Positions 33,354 to 59,462 of a stretch of 64,000 bases of DNA are shown here, in pieces. The stretch's first letter is position 1, and the number at the start of each line of letters is the position of its first letter. The translations under genes were made by a program, and so were the position numbers. Source of the stretch: Gammaproteobacteria bacterium. Its GTDB lineage: Bacteria > Pseudomonadota > Gammaproteobacteria > UBA4575. The notes under the pieces were generated by a model. That model was not told the origin of the DNA and ran no database searches. It saw only the letters and a list, made by a program, of their open reading frames with translations. The stretch covers positions 12,406-76,405 of the forward strand of contig CBDHFH010000003.1 of assembly GCA_965262455.1 (NCBI GenBank). The letters run 5' to 3'.

Positions 33354-33511
33354 GTACCCCTAAAATAGTCGTATAAAAATAATAACCATATATTTTTTAC
33401 GTCTTTCCAAATCCAACGTAAGTAAATTGATGGAGTAATAATTACTCGCACGCACACTCTGTATGCGCGCGTATATTTCTTTTTTCACATTTAACATGGG
33501 AGGGAGATGCT

Positions 33512-34687: not shown

Positions 34688-34711
34688 TTCAAGGAAAAGG
34701 GAGATTAACTT

Positions 34712-35599
34712 ATGACTGTATTACTTAATGAAAATACCAAAGTAATCGTACAAGGTTTTACCGGAAAGATTGGTACTTTCCACGCTGAAGAAATGATGGA
34801 ATACGGCACCAACCTAGTGGGCGGCGTAACACCGGGTAAAGGCGGAAAAGAGCATCTTGGCAAGCCAGTATTCAATACTGTTAAAGAAGCTGTCAACGAA
34901 GTCGGCGCTGAAGCCAGCATCATTTTCGTCCCGGCAGCATTTGCTGCTGACTCCATCATGGAAGCGGCAGATGCGGGCATTAAATATTGTGTCGCTATTT
35001 CTGATGGCATCCCAGCGCAAGACATGATGAAAGTGAAGCGCTACATGTATCGTTACAAAAAAGAAGACCGCATGGTCCTCACTGGCCCTAACTGTGCAGG
35101 CACCATCAGCCCAGGCAAAGCCATGCTAGGCATTATGCCAGGCCATATATACATGGAAGGCAATGTCGGTGTGGTCGGCCGCTCTGGCACATTGGGATAC
35201 GAAGCAGCATCACAAATGAAAGCGCTAGGCATTGGTATCACTACCAGTGTTGGCATTGGCGGTGACCCCATCAATGGCAGCTCTCACAAAGACATACTCG
35301 AGCACTTCGAAAAAGATCCAGATACTAAAGCGGTGATGATGATAGGTGAAATCGGTGGTCCACAAGAAGCCGAAGCAGCCGAGTTCTTCAAAAATCATAT
35401 GACAAAGCCATTGGTGGCTTATATTGCAGGCCTCACAGCACCTAAAGGACGACGCATGGGTCATGCTGGAGCAATTGTTTCGGGTGTCGGTGAAAGCGCT
35501 GCAGAGAAAGTCGCACTTCTCCAAGAAGCGGGCGTGACTGTTGCACCTAATCCATCGGATCTAGGCATTACGATGGAAAAAGTACTCAAAGAAATGTAA
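34712..35599 (+). CDS. mtkB: malate thiokinase small/alpha subunit
   Basis: SucD-like CoA-binding subunit (VIVQGFTGKIGTFH, catalytic His region GHAGAIVSG). 295 aa. Confidence 0.9.
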   Translation: MTVLLNENTKVIVQGFTGKIGTFHAEEMMEYGTNLVGGVTPGKGGKEHLGKPVFNTVKEAVNEVGAEASIIFVPAAFAADSIMEAADAGIKYCVAISDGIPAQDMMKVKRYMYRYKKEDRMVLTGPNCAGTISPGKAMLGIMPGHIYMEGNVGVVGRSGTLGYEAASQMKALGIGITTSVGIGGDPINGSSHKDILEHFEKDPDTKAVMMIGEIGGPQEAEAAEFFKNHMTKPLVAYIAGLTAPKGRRMGHAGAIVSGVGESAAEKVALLQEAGVTVAPNPSDLGITMEKVLKEM

Positions 35600-35669
35600 C
35601 TACGTATTGCGTGCAGTCATGCTGCCCAATCGCAAATCGGAATAAATCAATTTAGGGAGAGTCCTGAAA

Positions 35670-36638
35670 ATGAGTAAACCTAAAGTTATCGTTACCCGCA
35701 AATGGCCAGAACCCGTTGAAGCTCAGCTTAAAGAGTTATACGACGTTCAACTTAATGACAATGACGTTGCAATGACGCCAGACGAAATGAAAGCAGCACT
35801 TAATAACTGCGATGCATTTTGTCCTACGGTAACAGATCCAGTTAACGCAGATGTGTTAGGAACAGCGGATATTTCAGCGAAGATAATTGCCAGCTATGGT
35901 GTTGGCTTTAACCATATCGACTTGGACGCGGCAAAAGCACGCAATCTTACTGTCACCAACACACCTGAAGTGTTAACAGACTGCACTGCTGACATTGCCA
36001 TGGGTTTACTACTTTCTGCCGCACGCAGAATTGGCGAAGGTGAACGTCACTTGCGTGGTGGCGAATGGACTGGTTGGCGTCCAACTCACATGATGGCAAC
36101 TAAAGTCACTGGAAAAACCTTGGGCTGTATTGGCTTTGGACGTATCGCACAAGCCACCGCTGCGCGTGCACATTTTGGTTTCGGTATGAAAATCATTTTC
36201 AGTGATCCTTACCCACCTTCACAAGAAGTGATGAATCGCTTTGGCGCTACTCAAATGAGTGTCGAGGAAGTGTTACAGCAAGCTGACTTTGTTTCACTGC
36301 ATTGCCCTGGCGGTAAAGATACATATCACTTACTTAACGAAGAGCGCATTGGCATGATGCAAAAACATGCTGTGCTTGTTAACTCAGCACGAGGAGATGT
36401 CATCGACAACCAAGCGCTAATCAAAGCACTAAAAGATGGCACTATTGCAGGCGCAGGTTTAGATGTGTTTGAAGGTGAACCTAAGTTGGATCCTGGCTTT
36501 TTAGATTGCGAAAATGCCGTGTTACTTCCGCACCTTGGAAGTGCATCAATCGAAACACGTATTGCCATGGGTGAGCGCGTGTTAGAAAACTTAAAAGCAT
36601 TTTTTGCGGGCGATGTCCCTCGTGATAAGTTGGTATAA
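35670..36638 (+). CDS. hprA: hydroxypyruvate reductase / D-glycerate dehydrogenase (D-2-hydroxyacid dehydrogenase family)
   Basis: NAD-binding motif GCIGFGRIAQA. Catalytic R/E/H of D-2-hydroxyacid dehydrogenases. Position between mtkB and ppc. Confidence 0.7.
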   Translation: MSKPKVIVTRKWPEPVEAQLKELYDVQLNDNDVAMTPDEMKAALNNCDAFCPTVTDPVNADVLGTADISAKIIASYGVGFNHIDLDAAKARNLTVTNTPEVLTDCTADIAMGLLLSAARRIGEGERHLRGGEWTGWRPTHMMATKVTGKTLGCIGFGRIAQATAARAHFGFGMKIIFSDPYPPSQEVMNRFGATQMSVEEVLQQADFVSLHCPGGKDTYHLLNEERIGMMQKHAVLVNSARGDVIDNQALIKALKDGTIAGAGLDVFEGEPKLDPGFLDCENAVLLPHLGSASIETRIAMGERVLENLKAFFAGDVPRDKLV

Positions 36639-36710
36639 TCCAATAGCATATTATTGCTATAAACATACTTCGCATCTTCTGATGTGAAGAGTTTAGTTTA
36701 ATAAGTTAAC

Positions 36711-36740
36711 AAAAGGAGGCTGCCAGCCTCCTTTTGTACG
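36711..36740 (+). terminator. rho-independent (probably bidirectional) terminator between hprA and ppc
   Basis: AAAAGGAGGCTG-c-CAGCCTCCTTTT: near-perfect 12-bp stem flanked by A-run and T-run. Confidence 0.7.
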
Positions 36741-36761
36741 TATACAAAGCAAGTTAAAACC

Positions 36762-39557
36762 ATGACAACCAAGAAGAAATCAATGTCTATAAAATCGTTT
36801 TTATCAAACTGGACTCAGTTTGTATCGATGTCGAGTAGCGCTTCAATCTCAGAGCGAGTAACCAAGTACGGCGACGAAGTATCGGAACTTTTATTCAACA
36901 GTTTGCTTGCTGTCATTCGCAAACGTAGCCCTGAAATTGAAGATATTATTCTTGGTAACCAGGAGCTACGACAGTCGAACGAAACATTACTGACTCACGC
37001 ACTGCAAGCATATGGCATTTGGTTTCAGTTATTATCTATTCTTGATCAACATGTTCATGAAAAGCGCTTGCGCTTGATAGAAACAGATATAGGTCATGAT
37101 CAAGTACCCGGGACATTTGCGCAAGTCGTTGCACAAGCAGCAAACGAAGGTGTCACAGCGGAACAACTGCAAAACGTATTACAAAACTCATCTATCTTGC
37201 CCACTATTACGGCACACCCAACAGAAGCAAAGCGCGTGACTGTGCTGGAAATTCATCACCGAATTTATATGCTACTTAAGCAGCTCGAGAAAGACCGCAC
37301 TACTCCACGCGAAAAAGATATGCTTAAACAAAAAGTCAAAGATGAAATTGATCTACTTTGGCTGACGGGTGAGATTCGTCTCGAAAAACCAACGGTTCTA
37401 CAAGAAGTATCTTGGGGAATGCATTTCTTTAAAGAGTCACTATACGAAGGGGTGGTGCAACTCTATTCAGAATTAGAACGTGTGCTTATTACCTATTATC
37501 CGGATAGCGAATTTAATATTCCGGCATTTTTCCAGTTTGGTTCATGGATTGGTGGCGATCGTGATGGTAATCCTTTTGTTACTACCGAAGTGACAGATCA
37601 TGCAGTTAAACAATCTGCTAAAGCCACTCTGCAACATTACCTTACTGAATTAAAGCAACTTGGTTCTTATTTAAGTATCGCTAATCATTCAGTTGAGTTA
37701 CCCGAAAAATTTTATGATGAACTAAATAATATCCTAGAAAAAAGCGGAGAAGCAGATAACATAAAGTCACGCAATCCGGGCGAAGTATTTAGACAGATTG
37801 TCTATTGCATTGTTAAACGCCTTACCGCCAATCTTTATCAACTTTCTACTGACAGCAAACAAATCATTGCTTATGCATCTGCCGGTGAAATCGCAGCTGA
37901 TTTGCGCGTCATAGAAGATGGACTTATTGCAGCCAAGTGTGAATCACTATGCATGAACTATATTCGTCCATTCCGCCATGCTGTCGAAGCATTTGGTTTT
38001 CACACCACAAGCTTGGATCTAAGACAAAATTCAACCGTCACCACACAGGCATTACAAGACATCTGGAAAGTACAAAATGGTCTAGATGACGAGCCGCCGG
38101 CGAAAGAGAGTAAACAATGGCGTGATTGGCTATTAGAGAAAATTCAAGAGCCTATCGATCGGCTGCCACAGTTTAGCTCGCTATCGGAAATGAGTGCAGC
38201 GACGCTCGAGCTGATGGCTTTAATTCGTAACCTGCAAGAAAAAGTCGATCGTGATGCATTTGGTGTGTTTATTTTAAGTATGACGCAGTCGAGTGAAGAC
38301 ATTATCGGCGTTTACCTGCTTGCCAAGTATGCTGGCCTGTTTACAGATGCCAAGCATGTCGAATCAAGCCGCATCTTGATTGTGCCACTGCTAGAAACGA
38401 TTGATGATTTACGCAATGGCCCAGCTATTTTAGAGGATTTACTCGATATCCCATTTGTTCGTCGTACGATTGTGGAACATGGTGGCCATCAAGAAATCAT
38501 GGTGGGTTACTCTGATTCCAATAAAGATGGTGGTTGCGTGTGTTCTACTTGGGAAGTCAGTAAAGCTCAAACAATGATTTATCAAGCCGGCCAAAAACAT
38601 GGTATTGAAATTTCATTTTTCCATGGTCGTGGCGGTTCTGTCTCTCGTGGCGGCGCACCTGCTGGTCGCGCTATTGCTGCACAACCGGCTGGCACAATTA
38701 ATGGGCGCATGCGAGTGACTGAACAAGGTGAAGTCGTCTCAAGTAAATTTGCTAACCGTGAAGTTGCTGAGCAACAGATGGAGCTGCTTGCTGCAAGTGT
38801 TCTATCGCACACACTATTCTCAAAACAGGATCCCAACTTACAAAAACGTTCTGAATATGACGAGATCATGGAGATACTGTCTTCAACGTCGCAAATAAGA
38901 TATCGAGAGTTAGTCGAAACACCGGGATTGGTCGATTTCTATCAATATGCCAGTCCGGTTGAAGAACTCACTCTGATGAAAATTGGGTCACGCCCGGCAC
39001 GACGCTTTGGCGCTTCAAGTCTTGATGACTTACGTGCAATTCCATGGGTATTTGCCTGGACTCAGAACCGCTTAATGGTTCCGGGGTGGTATGGCTATGG
39101 TACAGCAATTAATCATCTGCTAAATGAACGTGGCGAGGATGGCTTAACAATATTGCATGAAATGTTTGAGAAGTGCCCTATCTTCAGACTCATCACAGAC
39201 AACGTAGAAAAAATGTTATTTCTGACTGACTTTGATGTCGCCAATGAATATGCATCATTAGTCGAAGATGAAACAAGCTGCAAAGAAATTATGGGCTTAA
39301 TTCAGTCAGAGCGTGAACTCACAGAACAAATGTTACTTAAAGTGACACAAGAAACAGAGTTGTGTAAGCGTTTCCCTAATTTCCATGACACAATGGTCGC
39401 AAGAATTGACGGCATCAAACAAATTGGCTTGGAACAAGTAAAACTTGTCAAGCAATTCAGAGATCCTGATACGACCAAGATTAGCGGACAGGAAAGCTTG
39501 GTTCCGCTGTTGTTATCAATTAACTGCGTAGCTGCTGGTTTAGGCTGGACCGGATAA
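36762..39557 (+). CDS. ppc: phosphoenolpyruvate carboxylase
   Basis: 931 aa with PEPC signatures (VMVGYSDSNKDGG, FHGRGGSVSRGG). Possible start at 36783. Confidence 0.9.
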   Translation: MTTKKKSMSIKSFLSNWTQFVSMSSSASISERVTKYGDEVSELLFNSLLAVIRKRSPEIEDIILGNQELRQSNETLLTHALQAYGIWFQLLSILDQHVHEKRLRLIETDIGHDQVPGTFAQVVAQAANEGVTAEQLQNVLQNSSILPTITAHPTEAKRVTVLEIHHRIYMLLKQLEKDRTTPREKDMLKQKVKDEIDLLWLTGEIRLEKPTVLQEVSWGMHFFKESLYEGVVQLYSELERVLITYYPDSEFNIPAFFQFGSWIGGDRDGNPFVTTEVTDHAVKQSAKATLQHYLTELKQLGSYLSIANHSVELPEKFYDELNNILEKSGEADNIKSRNPGEVFRQIVYCIVKRLTANLYQLSTDSKQIIAYASAGEIAADLRVIEDGLIAAKCESLCMNYIRPFRHAVEAFGFHTTSLDLRQNSTVTTQALQDIWKVQNGLDDEPPAKESKQWRDWLLEKIQEPIDRLPQFSSLSEMSAATLELMALIRNLQEKVDRDAFGVFILSMTQSSEDIIGVYLLAKYAGLFTDAKHVESSRILIVPLLETIDDLRNGPAILEDLLDIPFVRRTIVEHGGHQEIMVGYSDSNKDGGCVCSTWEVSKAQTMIYQAGQKHGIEISFFHGRGGSVSRGGAPAGRAIAAQPAGTINGRMRVTEQGEVVSSKFANREVAEQQMELLAASVLSHTLFSKQDPNLQKRSEYDEIMEILSSTSQIRYRELVETPGLVDFYQYASPVEELTLMKIGSRPARRFGASSLDDLRAIPWVFAWTQNRLMVPGWYGYGTAINHLLNERGEDGLTILHEMFEKCPIFRLITDNVEKMLFLTDFDVANEYASLVEDETSCKEIMGLIQSERELTEQMLLKVTQETELCKRFPNFHDTMVARIDGIKQIGLEQVKLVKQFRDPDTTKISGQESLVPLLLSINCVAAGLGWTG

Positions 39558-39720
39558 TCTTGTTATTGCATTCGAATATACTGTATTAAAAAATAATTTA
39601 AGCTGCGGATTTACTCAATATAAATTCGTCACTTGAATTATTTGTTTGCCTTGTACTTTTATCGCTAGTAACACAGAAATAATTAAACTGAATTAATATA
39701 AAATTTACCCATCAAATCTA

Positions 39721-40578
39721 ATGAAAAAGTTACTTTACCATTTCGATACTGACAAGATACCCAGTGTTTTTGATTCTGTGGTGGCCTATGACGGTGGCGC
39801 AGATCATGTTACTCAACTGGCAGGCATTAATCCTGACAATTGTTATTCCCTAGTTGAAGGGGCAATTTATACGCGTGCACCTAAACACAAGAAAAATACC
39901 GCTTTGTTTATTGGAGGTAGCGATTTAGCTGCCGGCCAAACATTATTTGAAGCAGTACAAAAAATATTTTTTCAAAACTTCCGTGTATCTGTGATGCTTG
40001 ATAGTAACGGCTGTAACACAACCGCTGCTGCAGGGGTAGCACTGATCGCTAACTCTACTGATATTCAAGGCAAAACGGCAGTCGTATTAGCTGGCACCGG
40101 TCCTGTTGGTCAGCGTGCCGCCGCAATGCTTGCCATGAACGGTGCTAATGTTCGTTTAACTTCACGCAAATTAGATCGTTCCCAACAATCATGTGAATTA
40201 ATGCAACAGCAATTTGGTGTCGAATTAACTCCTATGGTTGCCGCGGATGATGAATCGATTAGTCAAGCACTGGATAATGCTCATATTGTATTTGGTGCTG
40301 GCAAGACAGGCATTCAGTTATTAAATGCACAGCAGTGGCAAGATCATCCAACCATCGAAGTCATGGCAGACGTTAATACCGCGCCACCTCTTGGTTTTGA
40401 GGGCATCGACATGATGGATAAAAATGAGCAGCGCTTTGGCAAGCGTATTTTTGGCGGCATCGGCATTGGCGCACTTAAATTACAATTGCATCGTGCATGT
40501 ATTGCGCGTTTATTTGAAAGTAATGACTTGGTGCTTGACGCCAAAGAAGTTTATCAGACTGCAGAATCGCTACTTTAA
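39721..40578 (+). CDS. mtdA: NADP-dependent methylene-H4MPT/methylene-H4F dehydrogenase
   Basis: 285 aa, MtdA-like (VVAYDGGADHV, AVVLAGTGPVGQRAA Rossmann motif). Confidence 0.85.
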   Translation: MKKLLYHFDTDKIPSVFDSVVAYDGGADHVTQLAGINPDNCYSLVEGAIYTRAPKHKKNTALFIGGSDLAAGQTLFEAVQKIFFQNFRVSVMLDSNGCNTTAAAGVALIANSTDIQGKTAVVLAGTGPVGQRAAAMLAMNGANVRLTSRKLDRSQQSCELMQQQFGVELTPMVAADDESISQALDNAHIVFGAGKTGIQLLNAQQWQDHPTIEVMADVNTAPPLGFEGIDMMDKNEQRFGKRIFGGIGIGALKLQLHRACIARLFESNDLVLDAKEVYQTAESLL

Positions 40579-42334: not shown

Positions 42335-43105
42335 TTAACTCTTGGCAATGCGGGTTCTATTAAACATCAAGCCTGCAATCGCTGATAAGAATAACCAAAT
42401 ACCCGCAGGGATAGGCACAACAGTTGAATTGAATGCATCTACGCCCGCTTCAAACAGCTCTTCACTTAAACCATTGTTAAAAAATAAGCCAAATGTATGC
42501 GAGTCCATAATGCCGGATTGATCAGTAGTCAGTGACATCAACAAGCCATACGCGCCTGTTAAGCCATTATTCAATGTAAAGTCGACATGCTCATGCACAA
42601 CTCCATCAATACCTGCCTGGCCGATGATATTTTCTTCCATGCCAGATAGATAACCGGCAAGGTCTGAAACAGTACTACTAGATATTACTGATGCAGTACT
42701 AGGAAAACCATTATCATCAATTGTTATAGTCGCTGATCCAGGATCCAGAAACTGTGTACCATCCCAGTAAGAGAGTGGGCCTAATATGTTGAATCCTAAA
42801 AATGAACCATTTGCTAGTCTTGACGACAGTGGAAACTCTTCATTATCGAAACCAGGGTCTTCAGTCTTACCATTAGGTTGATCGTCAATTTCAGGGCTAT
42901 TGAAATCACCTTCAAATACGAAAAGACCTGGCTCGGGGAGTTCAAATTCGATTTTTCCGTCTACGATTTCGTACTCGACATCGCTATGAACCTCAGTCGC
43001 TAATGCGCTGTTAATTGGTAATAAGCCAAGCGCACAAATTGCAGCAACCAATGATGAAAAGCACAAAATCTTACTGGTTACTATTGAATAATATTTTCTA
43101 AGCAT
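42335..43105 (-). CDS. secreted protein with a VPxP (VPLPA/PEP-CTERM-like) C-terminal sorting signal; paralog A
   Basis: Signal peptide. C-terminus VPIPAGIWLFLSAIAGLMFNRTRIAKS (motif, TM helix, basic tail). Shares blocks with 45632..46495 (LSYWDG/LQYWDP, HEHVDF/HVHMDW, GAY). The ORF-track start is TTG; the first ATG is at 43105. Confidence 0.6.
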   Translation of the reverse strand: MLRKYYSIVTSKILCFSSLVAAICALGLLPINSALATEVHSDVEYEIVDGKIEFELPEPGLFVFEGDFNSPEIDDQPNGKTEDPGFDNEEFPLSSRLANGSFLGFNILGPLSYWDGTQFLDPGSATITIDDNGFPSTASVISSSTVSDLAGYLSGMEENIIGQAGIDGVVHEHVDFTLNNGLTGAYGLLMSLTTDQSGIMDSHTFGLFFNNGLSEELFEAGVDAFNSTVVPIPAGIWLFLSAIAGLMFNRTRIAKS

Positions 43106-43131
43106 TCTTATCTCTCCCAAATAGACATATA

Positions 43132-43170
43132 ATGATATAACATAGCTTCAACTGCATTATGTTATATCAT
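43132..43170. promoter_or_regulatory. Fur-box-like inverted repeat in the divergent promoter region of paralog A and TBDR1
   Basis: ATGATATAACAT-agcttcaactgcatt-ATGTTATATCAT: 12-bp perfect arms. The left arm plus its 5' flank reads tATAATGATAtaaCAT, close to the GATAATGATAATCATTATC consensus. Confidence 0.4.
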
Positions 43171-43241
43171 AACAATAAAATAAAGCAGTTCCTGTAAACA
43201 AATTTTTAAAGTTACTTTTCAGTAATATTTTGATCGCTCAT

Positions 43242-45608
43242 ATGACAAATTCGCTGTACATAGTTGCGGTTCATAGCGTTATCTTCGCTATCGCACCAAA
43301 ATTGATCTATGCACAAATCGAAGAATTGCACGACAACTATCAACACTTCAATCCCACACACTATAATTCACAGCCGACGTCTTACAATAATGCCAGTACC
43401 AATATAGTCGTTCTTGAGGATAAATCAGAACAACAAATAAATAATCATGTGCATACTGACTTACATGAACCTATCAAACTTGCAGAGACTGTTGCTGAAG
43501 ATAACAACCAGCAATATAGCAAAGCAACTAACTCAAATAATGAATCACTGGAGGATGCAGATATTTTATTGGAAACTATTGAAGTGATTGGTGAGAAAAA
43601 TAACTTTAAAACAGAACCTGCATCTACTTTAAAGGGTGACGAACTCACACAAGAACTTGCACCAACCTTAGGTGAAACATTACAAAACCAAGCTGGGGTA
43701 CATAACTCAACATTTGGTCCTGGCGTAGGAATACCCGTAATCAGAGGAATGACAGGTTCTAGAATTAAAGTCTTGCAAAGTTCTATGGGTACTTTTGATG
43801 CATCCTCGGTCAGTCCTGATCATGCGATTACAATTGAACCCTTATTAGTGAAAGAAATTAAAGTCTTGAGAGGTCCTGCAACATTTCGTTATAACGGTAC
43901 AGCTATGGGAGGCGCAGTTGATGTTAAGACGGGGCGTATTCCAGAGTGGATTCCTGATAACAACATAGATGCAACATTTGAGTCTCGATATGACTGGAAT
44001 TCTGATCTTACTGCAAATGTTTTTAAATTAGATGCCGGTACTGGCCCTCTAGTAGTCCATATTGATGGTTATGATCGAAGTTCCAACAATATTCATATTC
44101 CCGATAATGCATTGGCTGAAGAAGCGGTACTGGAACAATTCGGCAACCTCATAGAGTTTGACAATACCGATGGATTTGTTGCTAATTCGGATAGTGAAAG
44201 TCATGGATACTCATTTGGCTCATCTTTGGTTTTTGACCAGGGTTATATAGGTTTTGCCGTAAATGAACTTGAAAATAACTATGGCATCCCACCTGGTGGG
44301 TTGCCACCACATAGTGATGATCCTGCAAATGTCCCGGTGACACCTGAGAATCTGCGTATTGATATGGATCAAACACGATGGGATTTTGCAACTGAAATAT
44401 ATGATTTACCTTATGGCATAAATTCTGTCTCACTCAAGTTTGGCGATGTTGATTACACTCATTCAGAATTAGCTAGGGGCTTACCTTCGACAACATATGA
44501 TAGTGACGCCCAGGAATTTCGATTTGATATAGATGTCACTCATAACGAATTCTTTCAAGGCAGTTTTGGCTATCAATGGTCTGATCAAGAGTTTGGCGCT
44601 GTAGGTATTGAATCTTTTATTCCACCCTCAGATATTGAAAGATATAGTTTTTATATCATTGAATCTATATGGATACAGGATTTTCTTAATTTCGAATTTG
44701 GTTATCGTGAAGAGTCATCTAAAATTAAACCCAAGGATGACTTTCGTAATGTTAGCGGCACTCTAGTCGAGTTACCTGATTTTGATCATACAGCACATTC
44801 ATTATCTGGTGCATTCGAATTAATCATCACAGATAACATAAGTATCAGATTAGCTTTAACTCAAGCTCAGCGCACTCCTGCTATACAAGAAGTATTATCA
44901 CTTGGCCCGCATTTTGCCACACGCAGTTATGAAATCGGCAATATTGAATTAGAGGACGAGGAAATTTCTAACGTCGATCTTGGTGTTGGCTTTAGTAATG
45001 AGCATTTGGATTTCAATGTAAATATTTTTCAAAGTGACATAGACAACTTTATATATCAGGAAAATATTGGATTTTTTTATGATATTGAAACACGCGGTTT
45101 TCAACTGGCATGTGTACAAGTGACGGATTGTGTCCCCGTGTTTGCCTATTTTCAACAAGACGCTGAATTTTCAGGTTATGAAGCTGAGTTAAAATTTCGT
45201 CCTGTAACTCTTGATAATTTTTCTGCTGAAGTTGGATTTTTTGCTGATTATGTGCGCGGTAAGTTTGTTAATGCAACAAATGATGCCGAAGATGTGCCGC
45301 GTCTACCTCCTCGTCGTGCTGGTGTGTTTTTCGAGAGCTCATGGGATGCTTTTGATTTTAATTGGCGCTTTACTCATGCATCTGATCAAAAACGTGCTGG
45401 CCTGAATGAAACACCTACCGAGGGTTACAACCGCATTGATGCAGGACTAACTTACAACTGGCCATTCATGTTTGAAAGTGATGCAAAACTTTTTCTGAAT
45501 GCAAAAAATATTACTGATGAAGAAATCAGGCACTCAACATCATTTTTAAGAAATTTTACTCCTGAGCCAGGACGGTCAATTGAGCTAGGACTACGACTAA
45601 GTTTTTAA
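43242..45608 (+). CDS. TonB-dependent outer-membrane receptor
   Basis: Signal peptide. Long low-complexity N-terminal extension. TonB box/plug (ETIEVIG, TLGETLQNQAGV, IRGMTG). C-terminal beta-barrel ending RLSF. First ATG at 43242; the ORF-track start is TTG at 43230. Confidence 0.85.
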   Translation: MTNSLYIVAVHSVIFAIAPKLIYAQIEELHDNYQHFNPTHYNSQPTSYNNASTNIVVLEDKSEQQINNHVHTDLHEPIKLAETVAEDNNQQYSKATNSNNESLEDADILLETIEVIGEKNNFKTEPASTLKGDELTQELAPTLGETLQNQAGVHNSTFGPGVGIPVIRGMTGSRIKVLQSSMGTFDASSVSPDHAITIEPLLVKEIKVLRGPATFRYNGTAMGGAVDVKTGRIPEWIPDNNIDATFESRYDWNSDLTANVFKLDAGTGPLVVHIDGYDRSSNNIHIPDNALAEEAVLEQFGNLIEFDNTDGFVANSDSESHGYSFGSSLVFDQGYIGFAVNELENNYGIPPGGLPPHSDDPANVPVTPENLRIDMDQTRWDFATEIYDLPYGINSVSLKFGDVDYTHSELARGLPSTTYDSDAQEFRFDIDVTHNEFFQGSFGYQWSDQEFGAVGIESFIPPSDIERYSFYIIESIWIQDFLNFEFGYREESSKIKPKDDFRNVSGTLVELPDFDHTAHSLSGAFELIITDNISIRLALTQAQRTPAIQEVLSLGPHFATRSYEIGNIELEDEEISNVDLGVGFSNEHLDFNVNIFQSDIDNFIYQENIGFFYDIETRGFQLACVQVTDCVPVFAYFQQDAEFSGYEAELKFRPVTLDNFSAEVGFFADYVRGKFVNATNDAEDVPRLPPRRAGVFFESSWDAFDFNWRFTHASDQKRAGLNETPTEGYNRIDAGLTYNWPFMFESDAKLFLNAKNITDEEIRHSTSFLRNFTPEPGRSIELGLRLSF

Positions 45609-45631
45609 ATCAAAATATTTGGAGACAAATA

Positions 45632-46495
45632 ATGCTACGTTTATTCACTTTAATACTTGGATGCCTACTATCGACAGCTTCCATGGCAATACACCTGGAT
45701 GTTGCTGTTTCCTCTGAAAGTGGCAAATTGAAAACGGATTTTTGTCTAGAGCCGGCACAAGGCGGGATCGCATGTGATGAACTTCCTGTGCTAATACTGC
45801 TAGGCGTCCCTCCGCTCACTACGCCGGTTGATATTGAAACCGGCAAGAATATATTTGTATCTGATTTTAATGATTTTGAAGGTGGGCCGAATGCTGTAGA
45901 CGACCCAGGTTTCATATCAGGCACTTCTAGCGTAAGCAATCTTCCCGCCGGACTGCGCCTAAGCTATGAAGCAGTTGGCCAACTTCAGTACTGGGATCCT
46001 GTAGTTAAAGCATGGACCACTAATGTCCCCGGCTCAACTCGCATCGAGTTATTCGGTGGTATTGAAGTACTCACAGGCCCCCAGTGCGCTCCTTTACTTA
46101 TCTGTTTTCAGCCTGGCAGTACGCTATTTTCTGAAAGCGGCATTTCCGGTACGCCCTCTTTAATTGTTGGCGACACAAATTCTTCGGGTGTACTGCATGT
46201 ACATATGGACTGGTTTTTAGAAGACAGTAGCAATAATCCAGGCGGGCCGGACGGTGCTTACATGATCGAGATGAAATTAACTGCGCAAGGTTATCAGGAT
46301 AGTGAGTCATTCTTTATTATGTTTGCAAAAGAACTGTCTACAGAACAATTTGGCGAGGCTTTAGCTGCAAGAATTTCTTCACAACAAGCTGTGCCTGCAG
46401 TTCAGGTTCCAATGCCACAGCCTTATATATTTATTTTAATAATGTTACTTATAGCCAGTGCTATTTATGTGATTAGATCAAGCAAACATAAATAA
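45632..46495 (+). CDS. secreted protein with a VPxP (VPLPA/PEP-CTERM-like) C-terminal sorting signal; paralog B
   Basis: Signal peptide. C-terminus VPMPQPYIFILIMLLIASAIYVIRSSKHK. Homologous to 42335..43105 over the mature domain. Confidence 0.6.
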   Translation: MLRLFTLILGCLLSTASMAIHLDVAVSSESGKLKTDFCLEPAQGGIACDELPVLILLGVPPLTTPVDIETGKNIFVSDFNDFEGGPNAVDDPGFISGTSSVSNLPAGLRLSYEAVGQLQYWDPVVKAWTTNVPGSTRIELFGGIEVLTGPQCAPLLICFQPGSTLFSESGISGTPSLIVGDTNSSGVLHVHMDWFLEDSSNNPGGPDGAYMIEMKLTAQGYQDSESFFIMFAKELSTEQFGEALAARISSQQAVPAVQVPMPQPYIFILIMLLIASAIYVIRSSKHK

Positions 46496-46568
46496 TCATC
46501 AGTTAATTCGAACCACTAATCGCATGCGCCTAATTTGATCCGATTACTAACTGATTATGATTGGTTAA

Positions 46569-47099
46569 TTATCTTTTCACAGGATATTTTTGTAACTTGC
46601 GTTGCAATGTTCGGCGATGCATATTCAGTGCGCGTGCCGCTGCTGACACATTGCCATCATGCTCAAGCAACACTTTCTGCAAATGCTCCCACTCCAAGCG
46701 CTTAACCGATAGGGTTTTTTCTTCAATAGGTTGCTGCGGATTTGCTTGGTTGTTATGCAACTTGTTAATAATATCCTGCACGGATGCCGGTTTAGTTAAA
46801 TAGTTAATGGCACCAAGCTTAATGGCTTCTACTGTTGTAGCAATACTTGCATATGCAGTAAGCATGACGATTTTAATGTCGGGATTTTTTGCTAATAAAA
46901 ATTTAATTGCATTCAGCCCTGAATCTGCACCAATGCGTAAATCCACGACACCAAACTGCATGGCATGCAGGTTATCAAGTTTTTCCAGTTCGGCAATATT
47001 ATTCACTACACTAGTGGAGTAATCACGTTTTTCGAATGCCCGCGATAACGCGGCACCGAAAGCAACATCATCATCAACAATGACTACATTCATACTCAT
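46569..47099 (-). CDS. RegA/PrrA/ActR-family response regulator (REC + Fis-type HTH)
   Basis: Receiver domain (VVIVDDD..., D in VVDLRIGADSG). C-terminal HTH GNVSAAARALNMHRRTLQRKL. Confidence 0.8.
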   Translation of the reverse strand: MSMNVVIVDDDVAFGAALSRAFEKRDYSTSVVNNIAELEKLDNLHAMQFGVVDLRIGADSGLNAIKFLLAKNPDIKIVMLTAYASIATTVEAIKLGAINYLTKPASVQDIINKLHNNQANPQQPIEEKTLSVKRLEWEHLQKVLLEHDGNVSAAARALNMHRRTLQRKLQKYPVKR

Positions 47100-47101
47100 G
47101 A

Positions 47102-48346
47102 TTACTTTATTGGCTGTAATGGAAGTGTAATTAATGTTTCTACACCTCCAACTGTTCGGTTAGACAATTTTATAGCACCACCCAAGCGCTGAATAATTTC
47201 ATGCGCAAGAAATGCGCCCAGACCAATGCCTTCTGGTTTCGTCGAGTAAGGACGTACACCAATCTCTTTTATCAGCGTTGGATCTATGCCTTCGCCACGA
47301 TCAATAATCGTCAATTGTGCTTGGTCGTTCTGCCAATGCGCTTCAATAGACACCGACTCGGGTGACGCATCTGCAGCGTTATCAAGCAAGTTAATTAACG
47401 CTTTAGATAAAGTTTTACTCGCCACTACTCCAGCGGTGTCCGCGCCATTAAGCTGTCTATTCAGCTGAACATTTGGCCGTGTTTTCTGCCAGCTTGTTAG
47501 TAGTTGATTTATATATTCTTCAAATTTGACTACACCATCACTTTCAACGAGTCCAGTTCCCGCGCTGGTTGACATTTCCGCTAGCGCTTCCTTACAGCGC
47601 GATACTTGCTGCAATAAAATATCAATATCGTCTTGAGTGATTTTATTTTCTTCTAAATCCGAAATAATCAATTGTATCGTGCCTAACGGCGTACCCATCT
47701 CATGTGCGGTACTGGCAGCCAACGCGCCTAAGGAGACAAGTTTTTCATCATTCATTACGCGTTCCTTTGCTAACGCCAATTGATGATCTTTTTGCTGCAA
47801 TGCGGAGCGCATTTTAACTACAAAATAAGCCATCACAGTGGCGCTTAAAACGAAACTCACCCACATGCCTAGTACGTGTAAACCAAATGACTGTTGATGA
47901 TGAGCATGCTCATTAGGGAACCACCACATCAAAAATGAGTATGCAGCGATACTTATTATCGCTAATACCCATACCCAGGACTTCGGCAATAACACTGCAC
48001 TAATCGCCAAAGGCAGTAAGTACATAGAGACAAATGGATTGGTCGCCCCGCCGGAAAAGAAGAACAGCGCAGTCAGGGCACTAATATCTATGAGTAATTG
48101 AATAAATACTTCCGTGTCACTGGCATCAGAGACAAGATTTGCACGATATAGAGTAATGCCGTTGACGGCTGCCAGCCCTGCAATCACTAAGGTCACTGCC
48201 CAGCCATTGAGGGGGAAATCAAATATAAACGTTGCTAGTAAACACGCGACAACCTGGCCGATGATTGAGGCCGCGCGAAACCAGAATAATAATTTCAACG
48301 TATTCTGTTCTCGGGTAATACCCCATGGAAAATTCATTTTTGCCAT
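47102..48346 (-). CDS. RegB/PrrB/ActS-family sensor histidine kinase
   Basis: Six N-terminal TM helices. H-box AASTAHEMGTPLGTI. HATPase motifs (NLLDNAADA, IDRGEGI, GIGLG). 2 nt from the regulator gene. Confidence 0.75.
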   Translation of the reverse strand: MAKMNFPWGITREQNTLKLLFWFRAASIIGQVVACLLATFIFDFPLNGWAVTLVIAGLAAVNGITLYRANLVSDASDTEVFIQLLIDISALTALFFFSGGATNPFVSMYLLPLAISAVLLPKSWVWVLAIISIAAYSFLMWWFPNEHAHHQQSFGLHVLGMWVSFVLSATVMAYFVVKMRSALQQKDHQLALAKERVMNDEKLVSLGALAASTAHEMGTPLGTIQLIISDLEENKITQDDIDILLQQVSRCKEALAEMSTSAGTGLVESDGVVKFEEYINQLLTSWQKTRPNVQLNRQLNGADTAGVVASKTLSKALINLLDNAADASPESVSIEAHWQNDQAQLTIIDRGEGIDPTLIKEIGVRPYSTKPEGIGLGAFLAHEIIQRLGGAIKLSNRTVGGVETLITLPLQPIK

Positions 48347-48511
48347 TATTTATCGTTATTGTTCGTTAGCATCTCAACGCGAGTTGTCGATCATTATAAA
48401 CAAGTCTTTTCTATAACAATCAAATACCTATGCGACATTTTGTCACATTGCTGGAGAGTTAATATTTGCTACTCTGCGCGACATTCGTATCGCCCCCACA
48501 AGAAGGAAGCC

Positions 48512-50638
48512 ATGTCAGTTACAAGGAAGCACACTTACATTTTTATTTCGGCAAGTATACTAGCATCTCTGCATACATCCTGGTTATCTGCCGAACAGCT
48601 TCAGCCGATCTCAGTCACAGACACAGTAATAGAAGATTCCAACTCCGCCAAACCTAAAACAGTTGAGACAGACGTGACTCACATGATGGAATCCGTCCCT
48701 GGTGGTGGTATTCACAGTAATGGGGCAATTAGCGGTCAAACTTATTTTCGTGGGATTTTTGGCCCAAGAATGAATGTGCTGATAGACGATGTTCGTATCC
48801 AGAGTGGTGGCCCCAACTGGATGGACCCTCCTTTACATTACATGCCAAATACTTTGGTTGATTCATTTGAAGTGGAACGCGGCATTGACGCAATCAGTAA
48901 TGGCAGCACCTTAGGAACTACCGTCAAAGTCACCCCTAAGACAAGTAAATTCACCAATACAGACCAATTCAAAGTTAGTAGCGATGTAGAGATCTCCGGT
49001 CACACTGTCGACTCGGGTTATAACGCTGGCGGTGTTGTAGGATTGTCTAACAAACAGCATCGTATACATATTTCTGGCAGTCATGACCAAGGCGATGATT
49101 TTAGTTCTGGTGATGGTGAAATTGATGGCACAGAATATGAACGCAGCAGCATAGGTGCTGGTTACGGTTACCAGATTGGCACACACGAATTATCATTTGA
49201 CGCACGTTATGTCAGTTCAAAAGACTCAGGCACACCTTCATTACCTCTTGACCCAAATTACTTCCACACTCAATTGTACAATGCGAAGTATATAGGCGAA
49301 GTCGCTGACTTTGATGTTGAGCTCACACTATTTCATACTGATGTTGAACATCAGATGAATAACTTTGATCAACGTCCTGCGCCGAATTTTTCTAACATAA
49401 TGCTACCGCCATTTGCAGGCACCGATCGTCGAGTGGTTGATGTAAAGTCTGACGATACTGGTGCCAAGCTCAAGCTAACTCGAGCGATTTCAAATGGGCA
49501 GATTAGTATTGGTGTTAATGGACATAATGCGGATCATGATTCAGTAATTACTGACCCTGACTTTGCGCCATTTGAGGTGGTCAACTTTAATAATGCAGAA
49601 GAAGATCATTTGAGTATATTTACTGAATGGAATGGTAACATTCAGCAGGCAAATGTTGAGATTGGTATGCGTTATCAGCGTGTCAAAACTGATGCTGATG
49701 AAATTTCTATCGTCCCGCCTGCATTAGCCCCTGCTGTCGCATTACGTGATCGATTCAACTCCTCTGATCGATCTAAATCAGATGATAACGTTGACTTTGC
49801 TGCCAAATTAAGTATACCAATTAGCAACGAGGTAGATTTTATTGCGGGCTATGCACGCAAAACTCGATCCCCAACTTACATAGAGCGCTATCAATGGATA
49901 CCTCTTAATGTCAATGCTGGCTTGGGTGATGGCAATAATTACATCGGCAATCCTGACCTGGATGCAGAATGGTCCAATCAATTTGAATTAGGATTCAATT
50001 GGGCAACAGATAAAACCTACTTTAGCCCACGTGCATATTACCAACGCATTAATAACTATATTCAAGGTGTTGCCACTGCAGACACACCAACGGTAATGGT
50101 CAGCATGAATGCCAATGGCGACGCGACGCCACTGCAATTTGAAAACGTCGACGCTGAAATTTATGGTATCGATACTGATTGGGGTTATGAAATTAATCAG
50201 GATTGGATGTTGTCAGGTACCGCTAGCTATGTGCGCGGCAAGCGACGTGATGTCAACGATGATTTATTTCATATTGCTCCGCCACGTACTAGTGCTGCTG
50301 TAACCAGACACTTTGGCAACGGTTCCGCGACCATTGAGGGCGTGCTCGTTGCAAGTCAAACAAAGATTTCTGATGAGTTGACTGACGACCCTAACAACCC
50401 TAATAATAATAACGATGCCACACCTGGATATGGTTTGATAAATTTATATGGCCAATATAGCCCAGCAAGCATGTCAAATCTGACTATTCAAGCAGGCATA
50501 GAAAATTTATTAGACAAAGAATATACCGATCACCTGAATGGCTTTAATCGTGTCGCCGGCAATGGTGTTGATGTTGGTGAACGTCTGCCGGGCCCTGGCA
50601 TCAATGCTTACTTCACCATTGGTATTGCTTTTCAGTAA
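48512..50638 (+). CDS. TonB-dependent outer-membrane receptor
   Basis: Start set at MSVTRKHTYIF, preceded by GGAAG. Plug domain (TYFRGIFGPRMNVLIDDVRIQSGGPNWMDPPLHYMPNTLVDSFEVERG). Barrel ends GIAFQ. Confidence 0.8.
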   Translation: MSVTRKHTYIFISASILASLHTSWLSAEQLQPISVTDTVIEDSNSAKPKTVETDVTHMMESVPGGGIHSNGAISGQTYFRGIFGPRMNVLIDDVRIQSGGPNWMDPPLHYMPNTLVDSFEVERGIDAISNGSTLGTTVKVTPKTSKFTNTDQFKVSSDVEISGHTVDSGYNAGGVVGLSNKQHRIHISGSHDQGDDFSSGDGEIDGTEYERSSIGAGYGYQIGTHELSFDARYVSSKDSGTPSLPLDPNYFHTQLYNAKYIGEVADFDVELTLFHTDVEHQMNNFDQRPAPNFSNIMLPPFAGTDRRVVDVKSDDTGAKLKLTRAISNGQISIGVNGHNADHDSVITDPDFAPFEVVNFNNAEEDHLSIFTEWNGNIQQANVEIGMRYQRVKTDADEISIVPPALAPAVALRDRFNSSDRSKSDDNVDFAAKLSIPISNEVDFIAGYARKTRSPTYIERYQWIPLNVNAGLGDGNNYIGNPDLDAEWSNQFELGFNWATDKTYFSPRAYYQRINNYIQGVATADTPTVMVSMNANGDATPLQFENVDAEIYGIDTDWGYEINQDWMLSGTASYVRGKRRDVNDDLFHIAPPRTSAAVTRHFGNGSATIEGVLVASQTKISDELTDDPNNPNNNNDATPGYGLINLYGQYSPASMSNLTIQAGIENLLDKEYTDHLNGFNRVAGNGVDVGERLPGPGINAYFTIGIAFQ

Positions 50639-57604: not shown

Positions 57605-58272
57605 AAGCCATGATATTAGCTGCAGGGCGAGGCGCTCGACTAAGTCCGCTCACCGATAAAATCCCCAAGCCTTTAGTCAAAGTCGGTCATGATACTCTTA
57701 TTGAGCATCATATAAGGAAGCTTGCAAAAGCAGGCTTCGAGAGCATTGTGATTAACACTGCGCATTTAGGCGAAAAAATTCGCAGTCACCTTGGAGACGG
57801 AGAACAATACGGTATAGCCATCGAATATTCCGATGAAGGCGAGCAGGCACTAGAAACCGCAGGCGGCATTGCATACGCACTGCCACTACTGGGTAAGCAA
57901 CCATTTTTAGCGATTAGTTCAGATGTGTATTGCGATATTCCCTTTGATACACATTTCCAGCTAAAGCAGAGTCGCATGCACTTAATTATGGTGAACAATC
58001 CGCCACATCACCCCAATGGAGATTTTAATGCGCAAGAAATTAATCTCGATAGTGCACCAGAGCTACGCTTTACTTACAGTGGCATCGCTTACATTAACCC
58101 TAACTTATTTACTCATGAGAAAAAAACTTACCCACTTATTGACGTCATTAAGCAATGCATAGAAGAAAATACCATTAGTGCCGACTTATATGAGGGCAAA
58201 TGGATTGATGTAGGGACTATCGATCGAGTGCATGCAGCCAATAAAGCAGCAATGAAAATTGGAGCACATTAG
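57601..58272 (+). CDS. murU: N-acetylmuramate alpha-1-phosphate uridylyltransferase
   Basis: Nucleotidyltransferase motif MKAMILAAGRGARLSPLTDKIPKPL. 223 aa. 4-nt overlap with amgK. Confidence 0.7.
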   Translation: MKAMILAAGRGARLSPLTDKIPKPLVKVGHDTLIEHHIRKLAKAGFESIVINTAHLGEKIRSHLGDGEQYGIAIEYSDEGEQALETAGGIAYALPLLGKQPFLAISSDVYCDIPFDTHFQLKQSRMHLIMVNNPPHHPNGDFNAQEINLDSAPELRFTYSGIAYINPNLFTHEKKTYPLIDVIKQCIEENTISADLYEGKWIDVGTIDRVHAANKAAMKIGAH

Positions 58273-58295
58273 CCCCAAATAGGTCAATATATAAT

Positions 58296-58320
58296 GACCG
58301 CTTTCGACCCAAAGCAGACA
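58296..58320. repeat. possible degenerate copy of the 25-bp island repeat (12 of the first 12 nt identical, then divergent)
   Basis: AATGACCGCTTTcgacccaaagcagac, versus AATGACCGCTTTtgcgctgaaaacggact at 61820. Lies 20 nt after the murU stop, at the left edge of the AT-rich islet. Confidence 0.3.
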
Positions 58321-58381
58321 TTTATGAGTCATTACAATATTATGTATTTTTGTTATTAAATTCTTTTTAAAGTCGAATAAT

Positions 58382-59290: not shown

Positions 59291-59462
59291 CCTCTAATGC
59301 GCCGATAGGCGACATTAAACTTCTAGAAAAAATATAATTAAAACATAGATTTATATATATGCTATTAACATCATATAAAATATTTAATATTTTTGATAAA
59401 TACTTAAAGAAAAGTATATATACTAAAAGAGTACTCTTAATCTGATCACATGGTGAATTCTG

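Follow-up and report, generated by a model that had tools for sequence, protein, structure and literature searches.

The window analysed here is a 64-kb stretch of DNA from a methylotroph host, in which serine-cycle and H4MPT genes are present. An ORF check of the window recovered six open reading frames at the positions that an earlier note on this DNA had assigned to them. Three of these make up a conserved unit, namely paralog A (42335-43105, minus strand), the receptor TBDR1 (43242-45608, plus strand) and paralog B (45632-46495, plus strand), where A is divergent from TBDR1-B and a 13-nt perfect inverted repeat lies between them. B starts 23 nt 3' of TBDR1 and the two genes are probably co-transcribed. 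The other three, located outside the conserved module, are a RegA-like response regulator (46569-47099, minus strand), a RegB-like histidine kinase (47102-48346, minus strand) and a second receptor, TBDR2 (48512-50638, plus strand). B and the regulator gene converge and therefore belong to separate transcription units.

Paralog A is a protein of 256 aa, identical to a database protein (P0011), with ATG 43105 as its likely true start. It is built from a signal peptide, a beta-sandwich core and a VPIPAG sorting-type tail, and its AF2 model (pLDDT 85.6) is mostly beta with a C-terminal helix at residues 234-255. The signal peptide (MLRKYY...INSALA; 42998-43105, minus strand) was read from the translation and coincides with helix 2-27 of the model, where the cleavage site, read by eye, gives a predicted mature start of TEVHSD. 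Two blocks hold candidate metal ligands, both located from alignments and with their coordinates verified on the minus strand. The first is H-S-D at the mature N-terminus (H40 and D42; 42980-42988), where both residues show no variation in the 19-sequence alignments and D42 none in the 53-sequence alignment either. The second is H-E-H-V-D-F (H171 and H173; 42578-42595), which is invariant in the 19 sequences and kept in at least 90% of the 53. With the family HMM A reaches 229.9 bits, and it belongs to an A-type subfamily that is without a Cys-containing insertion.

Paralog B, an ORF of 287 aa for which homologs were found, belongs to the B-type subfamily, where the insertion bears four invariant cysteines (C38, C48, C152 and C158) that fit with an extracytoplasmic location. 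Its AF2 model (pLDDT 84.3) ends in a helix at residues 263-285. Alignments and the translation place the equivalent blocks on the plus strand as H-L-D at the mature N-terminus (H21 and D23; 45692-45700) and H-V-H-M-D (H189 and H191; 46196-46210). That A and B are paralogs, as previously proposed, was borne out by BLASTP (31% identity over 195 residues, E=2e-12), and both carry an N-terminal hydrophobic, signal-like segment.

A and B are members of a large unnamed protein family, which comprises 1,235 cluster representatives and for whose core domain no Pfam or NCBIfam model was found. The family invariants are H-x-D at the mature N-terminus, DPG, H-x-H and GAY. Both proteins do contain the blocks that the earlier note had described as shared, namely YWD, H-x-H-x-D-[FW] and GAY; H-x-H and GAY were observed to be invariant in 19 close homologs and the tryptophan of YWD to be kept in at least 90%. 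Three of the four histidines of A are invariant, and likewise three of the four in B. Homologs bear His/Asp/Glu-rich tracts; no His-rich tract occurs in A or B of this window. Of the outcomes that the earlier note had named as refuting, neither a loss of the HxH and YWD blocks in homologs nor a match of the paralogs to a known non-metal family was observed.

Plug and barrel domains were found in both receptors, which agrees with the earlier count of two TonB-dependent receptors. TBDR1, with ATG 43242 as its likely true start, carries an acidic extension of about 100 aa at its N-terminus. Its best NCBIfam model is ZnuD (336.7 bits, equivalog cutoff 950), and among PDB entries only ZnuD 4rdr is related to it at E<=1e-10 (E=4.6e-56). 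The substrate of a receptor is not deducible from sequence alone.

The divergent promoter between A and TBDR1 is 136 bp long. The inverted repeat within it, ATGATATAACATA ... TATGTTATATCAT (43132-43170, with halves at 43132-43144 and 43158-43170), is composed of two Zur-box-like elements. The stronger is the Zur box core TGTTATATCATAACA (43160-43174, plus strand), which shows one mismatch to TGTTATANTATAACA, sits 68 bp 5' of the TBDR1 ATG and, with two mismatches allowed, is the sole Zur-core match of the whole 64 kb. The weaker element is mirrored on the gene A side (43127-43141, minus strand; reverse complement TGTTATATCATTATA) and has three mismatches as counted by eye. The consensus used is gamma-proteobacterial (PMC2706843; PMC2895646). 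The palindrome reported earlier as Fur-box-like is real, but it carries a Zur box and not a Fur box; a search of the window that allowed three mismatches found no 19-bp Fur box. A simple sigma-70 scan gave no promoter for the intergenic region, and neither zur nor znuABC is encoded within the window.

The operator was observed to be conserved. Across six loci, all nine Zur matches at up to two mismatches fall in the A/receptor divergent promoter and none in the other ~155 kb; five related loci carry an equivalent site in the same promoter and no other site. L001 has the site cAAATGTTATgTTATAACATTTC, which matches the gamma-proteobacterial consensus at 20 of 22 positions, and in L018 AAATGTTATGTTATAACATTT lies immediately 5' of a distant family member. 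The GC-rich promoter of L017 holds a different palindrome, not the TGTTATATCATAACA-type Zur box.

Family members stand beside a ZnuD-like receptor at 10 of 12 independent loci, the window counted, and at these ten the receptor is usually flanked by two or three paralogs; no receptor was found within the short stretch covered at L011 and L015. For each co-located receptor, TBDR1 included, ZnuD is the best-scoring model (231-347 bits). In addition, a FUR-family gene with Zur as its best model adjoins the unit in L008 (82.9 bits) and L003 (129 bits). The L017 operon reads member-member-ZepA opposite a TonB receptor, and its ZepA gene reaches 255.8 bits with the NF040463 model (cutoff 75); there is probably a second locus with a true ZepA neighbour. 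Both A-type and B-type copies are kept in every trio locus and their roles are therefore probably non-redundant, with one diffusible and one receptor-proximal protein as a possible division. The strict pairing of the family with the receptor and its co-occurrence with ZepA bear against the proposal that A and B are not metal shuttles at all. They would then be receptor accessory or envelope/matrix proteins, placed under Zur by chance, which strip zinc from macromolecules in the manner of a piracy co-receptor or serve as zinc-independent stand-ins for zinc-requiring surface proteins. His and Asp, the residues found to be invariant, are typical metal ligands rather than a sugar-binding signature, and the His/Asp/Glu-rich tracts of the homologs also point to metal, which leaves this proposal quite improbable.

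The earlier note had favoured a six-gene module in which MopE/CorA-like proteins capture copper, iron or a lanthanide for both receptors under redox control by RegB/RegA. The methylotroph host is in keeping with this, and the two regulatory genes were correctly named, as their best models are ActS/PrrB/RegB for the kinase (235.5 bits, cutoff 350) and ActR/PrrA/RegA for the regulator (162.5 bits, cutoff 250). TBDR2, with ATG 48512 as its likely true start, is also OprC/NosA-like: it has TonB-copper as its best NCBIfam model (170.6 bits, cutoff 472), has OprC as its nearest PDB relative (E=3.7e-27) and keeps an H-x-M and a Met aligned with OprC. The position that we take to be the ligand Cys of OprC is Gly in TBDR2. 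However, neither the RegB/RegA pair nor the OprC-like TBDR2 occurs at any related locus examined, including the nine other loci that pair family members with a ZnuD-like receptor, and they look like separate neighbours. No inverted repeat was found in the intergenic region between the kinase and TBDR2. Sequence and fold comparison gave no similarity of A or B to MopE or CorA. The proposed metals are likewise not supported, since the operator is of Zur and not Fur type, TBDR1 is ZnuD-like, and Zur-like genes and a true ZepA occur in related loci. We consider the six-gene module very improbable.

Metal capture and uptake is still the best reading, with A and B functionally tied to the TBDR1 between them. 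From the Zur box, the ZnuD-like TBDR1 and the Zur-like and ZepA genes at related loci, zinc is most likely the metal rather than copper, iron or lanthanides. A receptor flanked by two related secreted proteins behind a Zur-type operator looks like a zinc-scavenging unit, and on these sequence features we think it likely that the three genes serve Zur-controlled zinc acquisition, with RegB/RegA and TBDR2 as unrelated neighbours. When zinc is plentiful, Zur on the operator of the 136-bp promoter would repress gene A and the TBDR1-B operon, as the conservation of the operator suggests. Under zinc shortage both proteins would be made and Sec-exported, and their PEP-CTERM/VPLPA-CTERM-type tails would either release them to the cell envelope or keep them attached there. 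Each is a predicted beta-sandwich of about 200 residues with few histidines, nearly all invariant, where H-x-D at the mature N-terminus and H-x-H-x-D may form a Zn2+ site. Many homologs have additional His/Asp/Glu-rich tracts like those of ZnuA, ZinT and ZepA. Zinc-loaded A and B would then hand zinc to TBDR1 for import, on the model of hemophore-receptor pairs and of the part suggested for ZepA.

For A and B we infer that they bind zinc, are located at the surface and depend on an exosortase. The tripartite form of the tail described earlier was found in both, as VPIPAG... in A (VPIPAGIWLFLSAIAGLMFNRTRIAKS; 42338-42418, minus strand) and VPMPQP... in B (VPMPQPYIFILIMLLIASAIYVIRSSKHK; 46406-46492, plus strand), followed by a hydrophobic stretch and basic residues. 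Profile searches with CTERM models agreed for the homologs but not for the two proteins themselves: the best NCBIfam match of the A tail, VPLPA-CTERM, reaches 16.5 bits and stays under the 25.35 cutoff, and no CTERM model matches the B tail. VPLPA-CTERM is matched by 8 of the 19 close homologs and PEP-CTERM by 3; 31 of 53 wider homologs match Pfam PEP-CTERM (PF07589), and the TIGR02595 cutoff was exceeded in 5 of the 10 homologs tested. The sub-threshold and unmatched tails, which are plausible transmembrane anchors in the models (helices 234-255 and 263-285), and the lack of an exosortase gene within the window would suit zinc chaperones of the periplasm that an uncleaved C-terminal helix and basic cluster hold at the inner membrane. 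Regulation and metal would be the same, and only location and direction of transfer would differ, with zinc passing from the ZnuD-like receptor through A and B to an inner-membrane importer in a ZinT- or AztD-like way. We regard such chaperones as unlikely, because bona fide PEP-CTERM domains occur on most homologs, autotransporter or dockerin-like surface-display modules replace the tail in others, and the analogous ZepA is located outside the cell (PMC10957091).

Zinc acquisition by secreted proteins, our preferred reading, has a functionally analogous published counterpart, which does not support the earlier description of the combination as 'not a described system'. ZepA (All3515) of Anabaena is a Zur-repressed PEP-CTERM exoprotein that was shown experimentally to bind zinc and mediate zinc uptake, and genes of TonB-dependent transporters lie near its own (Sarasa-Buisan et al. 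2024, PMC10957091); its model, NF040463, is named 'all3515 family Zur-repressed PEP-CTERM protein'. In both families a signal peptide precedes a beta-rich mature domain (about 200-230 aa) that ends in a PEP-CTERM-type tail, with VPLPA-CTERM, dockerin and RTX variants of the tail. They also share an upstream Zur operator, conserved histidines as the proposed zinc site, His/acidic N-terminal tracts, and TonB-dependent transporters and FUR-family genes nearby, and in L017 a true ZepA gene shares an operon with two A/B-family members. No homology to ZepA is detectable once the sorting tail is taken off, where profile-profile comparison gives a probability of 1.7%, and A and B do not match NF040463. 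The motifs differ as well: A and B have H-x-D near the N-terminus and H-x-H-x-D near residue 170-190, whereas ZepA has H-X2-9-H-[FY]-H near residue 80-91. Furthermore, the A/B family stands beside a ZnuD-like receptor at 10 of 12 loci, usually as two or three paralogs, whereas no receptor was found at the two ZepA loci examined.

ZnuD of Neisseria meningitidis (PDB 4RDR; NF038289) provides the best model and only close solved relative of TBDR1, and a Zur box lies upstream of znuD as it does for TBDR1 (PMC2895646). The score of TBDR1, far under the equivalog cutoff, places it in a ZnuD-like clade and not as an ortholog. TBDR1 differs in its acidic N-terminal extension and in coming with dedicated secreted partner proteins; such partners are not known for ZnuD. 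The tails of A and B share the tripartite VP-x-P, hydrophobic helix and basic cluster of PEP-CTERM/VPLPA-CTERM substrates (TIGR02595, TIGR03370, PF07589), but the Glu of P-E-P is missing from both. MopE and CorA, copper-binding surface proteins of methanotrophs, resemble A and B as secreted or surface metal-binding proteins of C1-utilising bacteria. HasA-HasR and azurin-OprC, the latter cited in PMC10957091, have other ligands and no sequence or fold kinship with A and B; in these pairs a scarce metal or cofactor is bound by a secreted protein and brought to a cognate TonB-dependent receptor encoded nearby, and A and B may deliver zinc to TBDR1 in the same manner.

The six open reading frames which the earlier note had joined into a single copper, iron or lanthanide module were all found in place. 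The ORF of A lies on the minus strand (42335-43120), where the likely start ATG at 43105 gives a 256-aa protein identical to database protein P0011, and is followed on the plus strand by those of TBDR1 (43230-45608, likely start ATG 43242) and B (45632-46495). The response regulator (46569-47099) and histidine kinase (47102-48346) are encoded on the minus strand and TBDR2 (48359-50638, likely start ATG 48512) on the plus strand. TBDR1 and B are separated by a gap of 23 nt, while B is convergent with the regulator gene across a spacer of 73 bp. The arrangement of an A-type gene divergent from a receptor gene which is then followed by a B-type gene was observed in five other loci, L001 (identical to L005), L002 (identical to L006), L003, L004 and L007. 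The genes flanking this trio otherwise differ from locus to locus, and neither a RegB/RegA pair nor a second receptor was found in any of the five. Since these genes are missing from the trio loci and B and the regulator gene are convergent, only three of the six genes form a conserved unit, and the other three are an unrelated trio next to it. We also considered that the two-component genes and TBDR2 were inserted between B and a 262-aa gene conserved with L001, and rejected this since the two 262-aa proteins are unrelated.

The intergenic region between A and TBDR1 contains a perfect 13-nt inverted repeat (43132-43144 and 43158-43170), the right arm of which belongs to TGTTATATCATAACA (43160-43174). 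This sequence has one mismatch to the core of the gamma-proteobacterial Zur-box consensus GAAATGTTATANTATAACATTTC (PMC2706843, PMC2895646) and is the sole match to this core within the 64-kb window when up to two mismatches are allowed. A weaker mirrored Zur-like copy, with three mismatches counted by eye, is located at 43127-43141. We scanned the window and the five trio loci with TGTTATANTATAACA at up to two mismatches and all nine matches were found to fall inside the divergent promoters of A and the receptor (0.2-1.3% of each sequence scanned), with none across the other ~155 kb. As an example, the L001 promoter carries cAAATGTTATgTTATAACATTTC, which agrees with the full Zur consensus at 20 of 22 positions. 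The 19-bp Fur box GATAATGATAATCATTATC has no match anywhere in the window at up to three mismatches. Judged by its sequence, the palindrome is a Zur box and not a Fur box; the earlier note was right that a palindrome is present and wrong to liken it to a Fur box. A scan for sigma-70 promoters and terminators gave nothing in this intergenic region, with fewer sites than in shuffled controls. We noticed that the divergent promoter of the GC-rich locus L017 (3520-3600) has three copies of the palindrome GCAAC-N3-GTTGC and no AT-rich Zur box; this palindrome may be a lineage-specific operator for Zur or for another regulator.

The best NCBIfam model for TBDR1 is ZnuD (NF038289) with 336.7 bits, which is under the equivalog cutoff of 950 bits and ~220 bits above the next model at 115. 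The protein consists of a plug and a 22-strand barrel, and Neisseria ZnuD (4rdr, E=4.6e-56) is its only relative in the PDB at E<=1e-10. A predicted Zur box lies upstream, as it does for ZnuD. The receptors of L001, L003, L007, L008 and L017 likewise have ZnuD as their top model (231-347 bits). An acidic low-complexity N-terminal extension of ~70-150 aa precedes the plug in the window (43242-43590) and at the equivalent positions of L001, L002, L004 and L007, and that of the window receptor includes NNHVHTDLHE. A His-rich extension was considered as a common trait of these receptors and set aside, as the extensions are acidic and only some are His-rich.

A and B share 31% identity over 195 residues (E=2e-12). 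The paralogy proposed for them, together with the hydrophobic signal-type N-terminus, the C-terminal VP-x-P motif with its hydrophobic stretch and basic end, and the YWD, H-x-H-x-D-[FW] and GAY blocks, was seen in both translations. Neither protein matches any Pfam family. They had also been compared to the copper proteins MopE and CorA, an analogy for which sequence and fold comparison gave no match. Close homologs in a collection of 5.8 billion proteins number only 10 for B and only 9 for A. A profile of 19 close sequences recovered 1,235 representatives of 50% identity clusters at E<=1e-3, or 621 when the threshold is tightened to E<=1e-10; most representatives are ~235-250 aa long with the layout of A and B. 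Where the sources give these proteins a name it is "hypothetical protein".

Five residues (D42, P84, G85, G168 and Y186 in the numbering of A) are invariant in an alignment of 53 sequences, and H171, H173, G184, A185, S202 and VP-x-P are conserved at 90% or above. Among the 19 close sequences H40, D42, H171 and H173 are invariant, so that the conservation expected of the H-x-H block was borne out in both sets. A and B have four histidines each, three of which are the invariant ones, located in an H-x-D at residues 40-42 of A and 21-23 of B and in an H-x-H-x-D at 171-175 of A and 189-193 of B. B-type proteins contain an insertion with four invariant cysteines, and many homologs have extra His/Asp/Glu-rich tracts behind the signal peptide or within a loop. 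In some representatives (P0023, P0024 and P0085) the core domain was found on other surface or secretion devices. It is fused to T5SS/autotransporter-type regions instead of the tail in proteins of 517 and 933 aa, and a 681-aa representative has three tandem core domains, DH-rich linkers and a dockerin-like repeat at its end. These fusions and the tandem form suggest that one domain is displayed by several surface or secretion devices.

[quoted passage not shown] The tail of A scores 16.5 bits on VPLPA-CTERM (TIGR03370), under the cutoff of 25.35, and that of B matches no CTERM model. Homolog tails exceed the 16-bit cutoff of PEP-CTERM (TIGR02595) in five of the ten tested (21.9-26.1 bits). 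The Pfam PEP-CTERM family (PF07589) is matched by 31 of the 53 family members, and any other Pfam family only weakly and by at most four of them. The window has 47 ORFs of 150 aa or more, and no exosortase was found among them. The main rival explanation concerns the fate of these tails: A and B would be periplasmic proteins held by an uncleaved tail, with the roles of zinc and Zur unchanged. The reading preferred here has the tails sort both proteins to, or beyond, the outer membrane.

The family was observed to pair with a ZnuD-like receptor in 10 of 12 independent loci, window included; the remaining two, L011 and L015, have no receptor within the short sequence present there. A metagenome scan with the narrower alignment A7 gave two loci only. 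In the marine locus L008 (same as L009 and L010) a FUR-family gene is followed by two members, a beta-helix protein, a ZnuD-like receptor and a third member. The best model of the FUR-family gene is Zur at 82.9 bits, with Fur models at or below 35. The beta-helix-like protein inside the clusters of L008-L010 (L008 2537-4054) has 505 aa, weak pectate-lyase-like Pfam matches and no NCBIfam match. A Zur-like ORF (129 bits) adjoins the A-type gene of L003, and in the marine locus L018 a near-canonical Zur box accompanies member P0046 and a ZnuD-like receptor. Locus L016 has divergent receptor and member genes, an ORF of ~1,000 codons with the family domain and a C-terminal fragment that scores best on all3515_fam (33 bits). 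In L017 the genes of an ExbB-like protein, TonB and a ZnuD-like receptor (509 bits against TBDR1) are divergent from those of P0049, another member and a protein matching NF040463, the model of the "all3515 family Zur-repressed PEP-CTERM protein". The latter protein (5290-6129) scores 255.8 bits against a cutoff of 75, which serves as a positive control for the model, and is 41% identical to the Trichormus ortholog of the zinc exoprotein ZepA. L011 encodes, at 1387-1716, a protein of 109 aa that has a signal peptide and a dense His tract (AHDHLEHSDHHNHAGHTD...SSSHD). Its gene lies ~950 nt upstream of one for a family member with a canonical PEP-CTERM tail, and the two are separated by a 252-aa N_methyl (pseudopilin-like) gene. 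In the 64-kb window itself neither zur nor znuABC was found.

The metal proposed earlier, copper, iron or a lanthanide, gives way to zinc, as the operator is a predicted Zur box, the receptor is ZnuD-like and it is Zur-like genes and ZepA that co-occur with the family. The A/TBDR1/B locus is probably a zinc module under Zur, a reading that draws on operator conservation, receptor type, gene linkage, Zur-like and ZepA co-occurrence and conservation of ligand-type residues, all of which were observed computationally. When zinc is sufficient, Zur would bind and repress the divergent promoter. When zinc is limiting, A and B would be exported, and their sorting tails would place them at the outer membrane or beyond it. 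They would bind Zn2+ through their invariant His and Asp residues and hand it to the ZnuD-like receptor, which would import it in a TonB-dependent manner; the A-type and B-type copies may differ in role. What is retained of the earlier interpretation is the idea of metal-capture proteins that are secreted, sorted and partnered with a TonB receptor, and its metal, Fur box, MopE analogy, redox system and second receptor are given up.

The two-component pair is RegB/RegA-like, as had been described. The best model of the kinase is ActS/PrrB/RegB (NF033792; 235.5 bits, cutoff 350) and that of the regulator is ActR/PrrA/RegA (NF033791; 162.5 bits, cutoff 250), and both lead other models by a wide margin while remaining under their cutoffs. 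The kinase contains GGATNPF and, downstream of the H-box, an R-C-K cysteine (...SRCKEAL...); the quinone-site heptapeptide GGXXNPF and a redox cysteine downstream of the H-box are what we take to be the hallmarks of RegB. The region between the kinase and TBDR2 has no inverted repeat and carries a direct repeat of the octamer GCGACATT (48432-48439 and 48478-48485, 46 bp apart), which could be an operator tying the two-component system to TBDR2. The first copy lies within GCGACATTTTGTCAC, which resembles what is presumably the PrrA/RegA half-site arrangement, GCGNC-N5-GNCGC. TBDR2 (48512-50638 from its likely start) has TonB-copper (TIGR01778) as its best model, at 170.6 bits against a cutoff of 472, and OprC as its closest PDB relative (E=3.7e-27). 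We take the copper site of OprC/NosA receptors to be CxxxM/HxM. In the alignment, ...PNRMD... and ...DHIMDNF... of OprC correspond to SGGPNWMD and EHQMNNF of TBDR2, where the Met and the H-x-M are kept. At the presumed ligand-Cys position TBDR2 has Gly and the aligned PDB chain has Ala. By its sequence TBDR2 may be a receptor for copper or another soft metal with an altered site and, given its likeness to OprC and the retained Met and H-x-M, copper may concern TBDR2 rather than A and B.

The rest of the window (~41% GC) includes a cluster at 28238-40578 which encodes 5-formyl-THF cyclo-ligase, the formyltransferase FTR, a FolD-type dehydrogenase/cyclohydrolase, a class-V aminotransferase, an HpcH-type (malyl-CoA-lyase-like) lyase, two CoA-ligase subunits (malate-thiokinase-like), a 2-hydroxyacid dehydrogenase, PEP carboxylase and a methylene-H4MPT dehydrogenase-like (Mtd-type) protein. 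The cluster indicates a serine-cycle methylotroph or methanotroph, and from its serine-cycle and H4MPT-pathway genes the host is taken to be a methylotrophic gammaproteobacterium; the two named relatives are Gammaproteobacteria MAGs. The zinc assignment corrects the copper and redox reading that this methylotroph context invited. Elsewhere, a 154-aa ORF (7550-8014) matches only the C-terminal half of Glyco_transf_9, the heptosyltransferase family (profile positions 113-246 of 247); it may stem from the truncation or frame shift of a gene in an LPS-core region. At 21460-23281 a gene for a LexA/UmuD-like S24 peptidase precedes one for an ImpB/UmuC-family polymerase, an arrangement that resembles an SOS mutagenesis pair. 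GC content within the window is lowest at 58001-60000 (0.338 against ~0.41-0.42); this stretch could be acquired DNA and adjoins the gene of a 786-aa protein (59463-61823) with seven FG-GAP repeats and bacterial TSP3 repeats.

Outer-membrane zinc import is poorly understood in environmental bacteria, and ZnuD-type receptors are usually thought to import free zinc or small zincophores. We tentatively propose, as a possibility we would not yet bet on, that A and B represent a previously unrecognised widespread family (at least 1,235 clusters at 50% identity) of zincophores for ZnuD-type receptors, that the A-type and B-type proteins form a two-step relay with one released and the other receptor-proximal, and that the L017 operon identifies the ZepA receptor. 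If so, the L017 operon of TonB, receptor, two members and ZepA would supply the outer-membrane receptor that zinc exoproteins of the ZepA type have so far lacked, and scavenging zinc by means of proteins would be a strategy general to environmental Gram-negative bacteria, one which evolved at least twice, on different folds. The genetic pairing of the family with a specific receptor, at times in one operon with ZepA, offers a concrete candidate receptor-ligand pair and a putative function for a large family now labelled "hypothetical protein".

Among secreted proteins that handle zinc, ZepA, described in 2024, is the only one of this type that we found in the literature. It is a Zur-repressed Anabaena exoprotein (All3515) with a signal peptide and PEP-CTERM. 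Each monomer binds ~1.5 Zn and the protein supports growth when zinc is low; the neighbours of its homologs include TonB-dependent transporters, FUR-family genes and "other PEP-CTERM proteins" (PMC10957091). Its proposed zinc motif is H-X2-9-H-[FY]-H in the N-terminal third, near residues 80-91 (PMC10957091). This motif is missing from A and B, which have H-x-D and H-x-H-x-D instead. Neither protein matches NF040463 at E<=0.01, and BLASTP of both against the published ZepA sequence gave nothing. The family profile aligned to the single ZepA sequence with 20% probability over only the C-terminal ~65 columns, sorting tail included. With hhalign, the 53-sequence family profile and a 22-sequence ZepA profile reached 96.5% over the last strands and PEP-CTERM only, and the probability was 1.7% after the sorting tail was trimmed. 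Membership of A and B in the ZepA family was therefore rejected. At the two ZepA loci checked (L012/L013 and L014) no family members or receptors were found. A Zur operator upstream, as in ZepA, is also predicted for the A/B locus, which with its relatives would represent a second, unrelated family sharing the ZepA architecture and putative Zur control. As there is no detectable mature-domain homology, no NF040463 match and no ZepA motif, we regard the family as a functional analogue of ZepA which sometimes shares an operon with it, and the A/B system as a variant of this recently described kind built on an unrelated, large and unannotated family.
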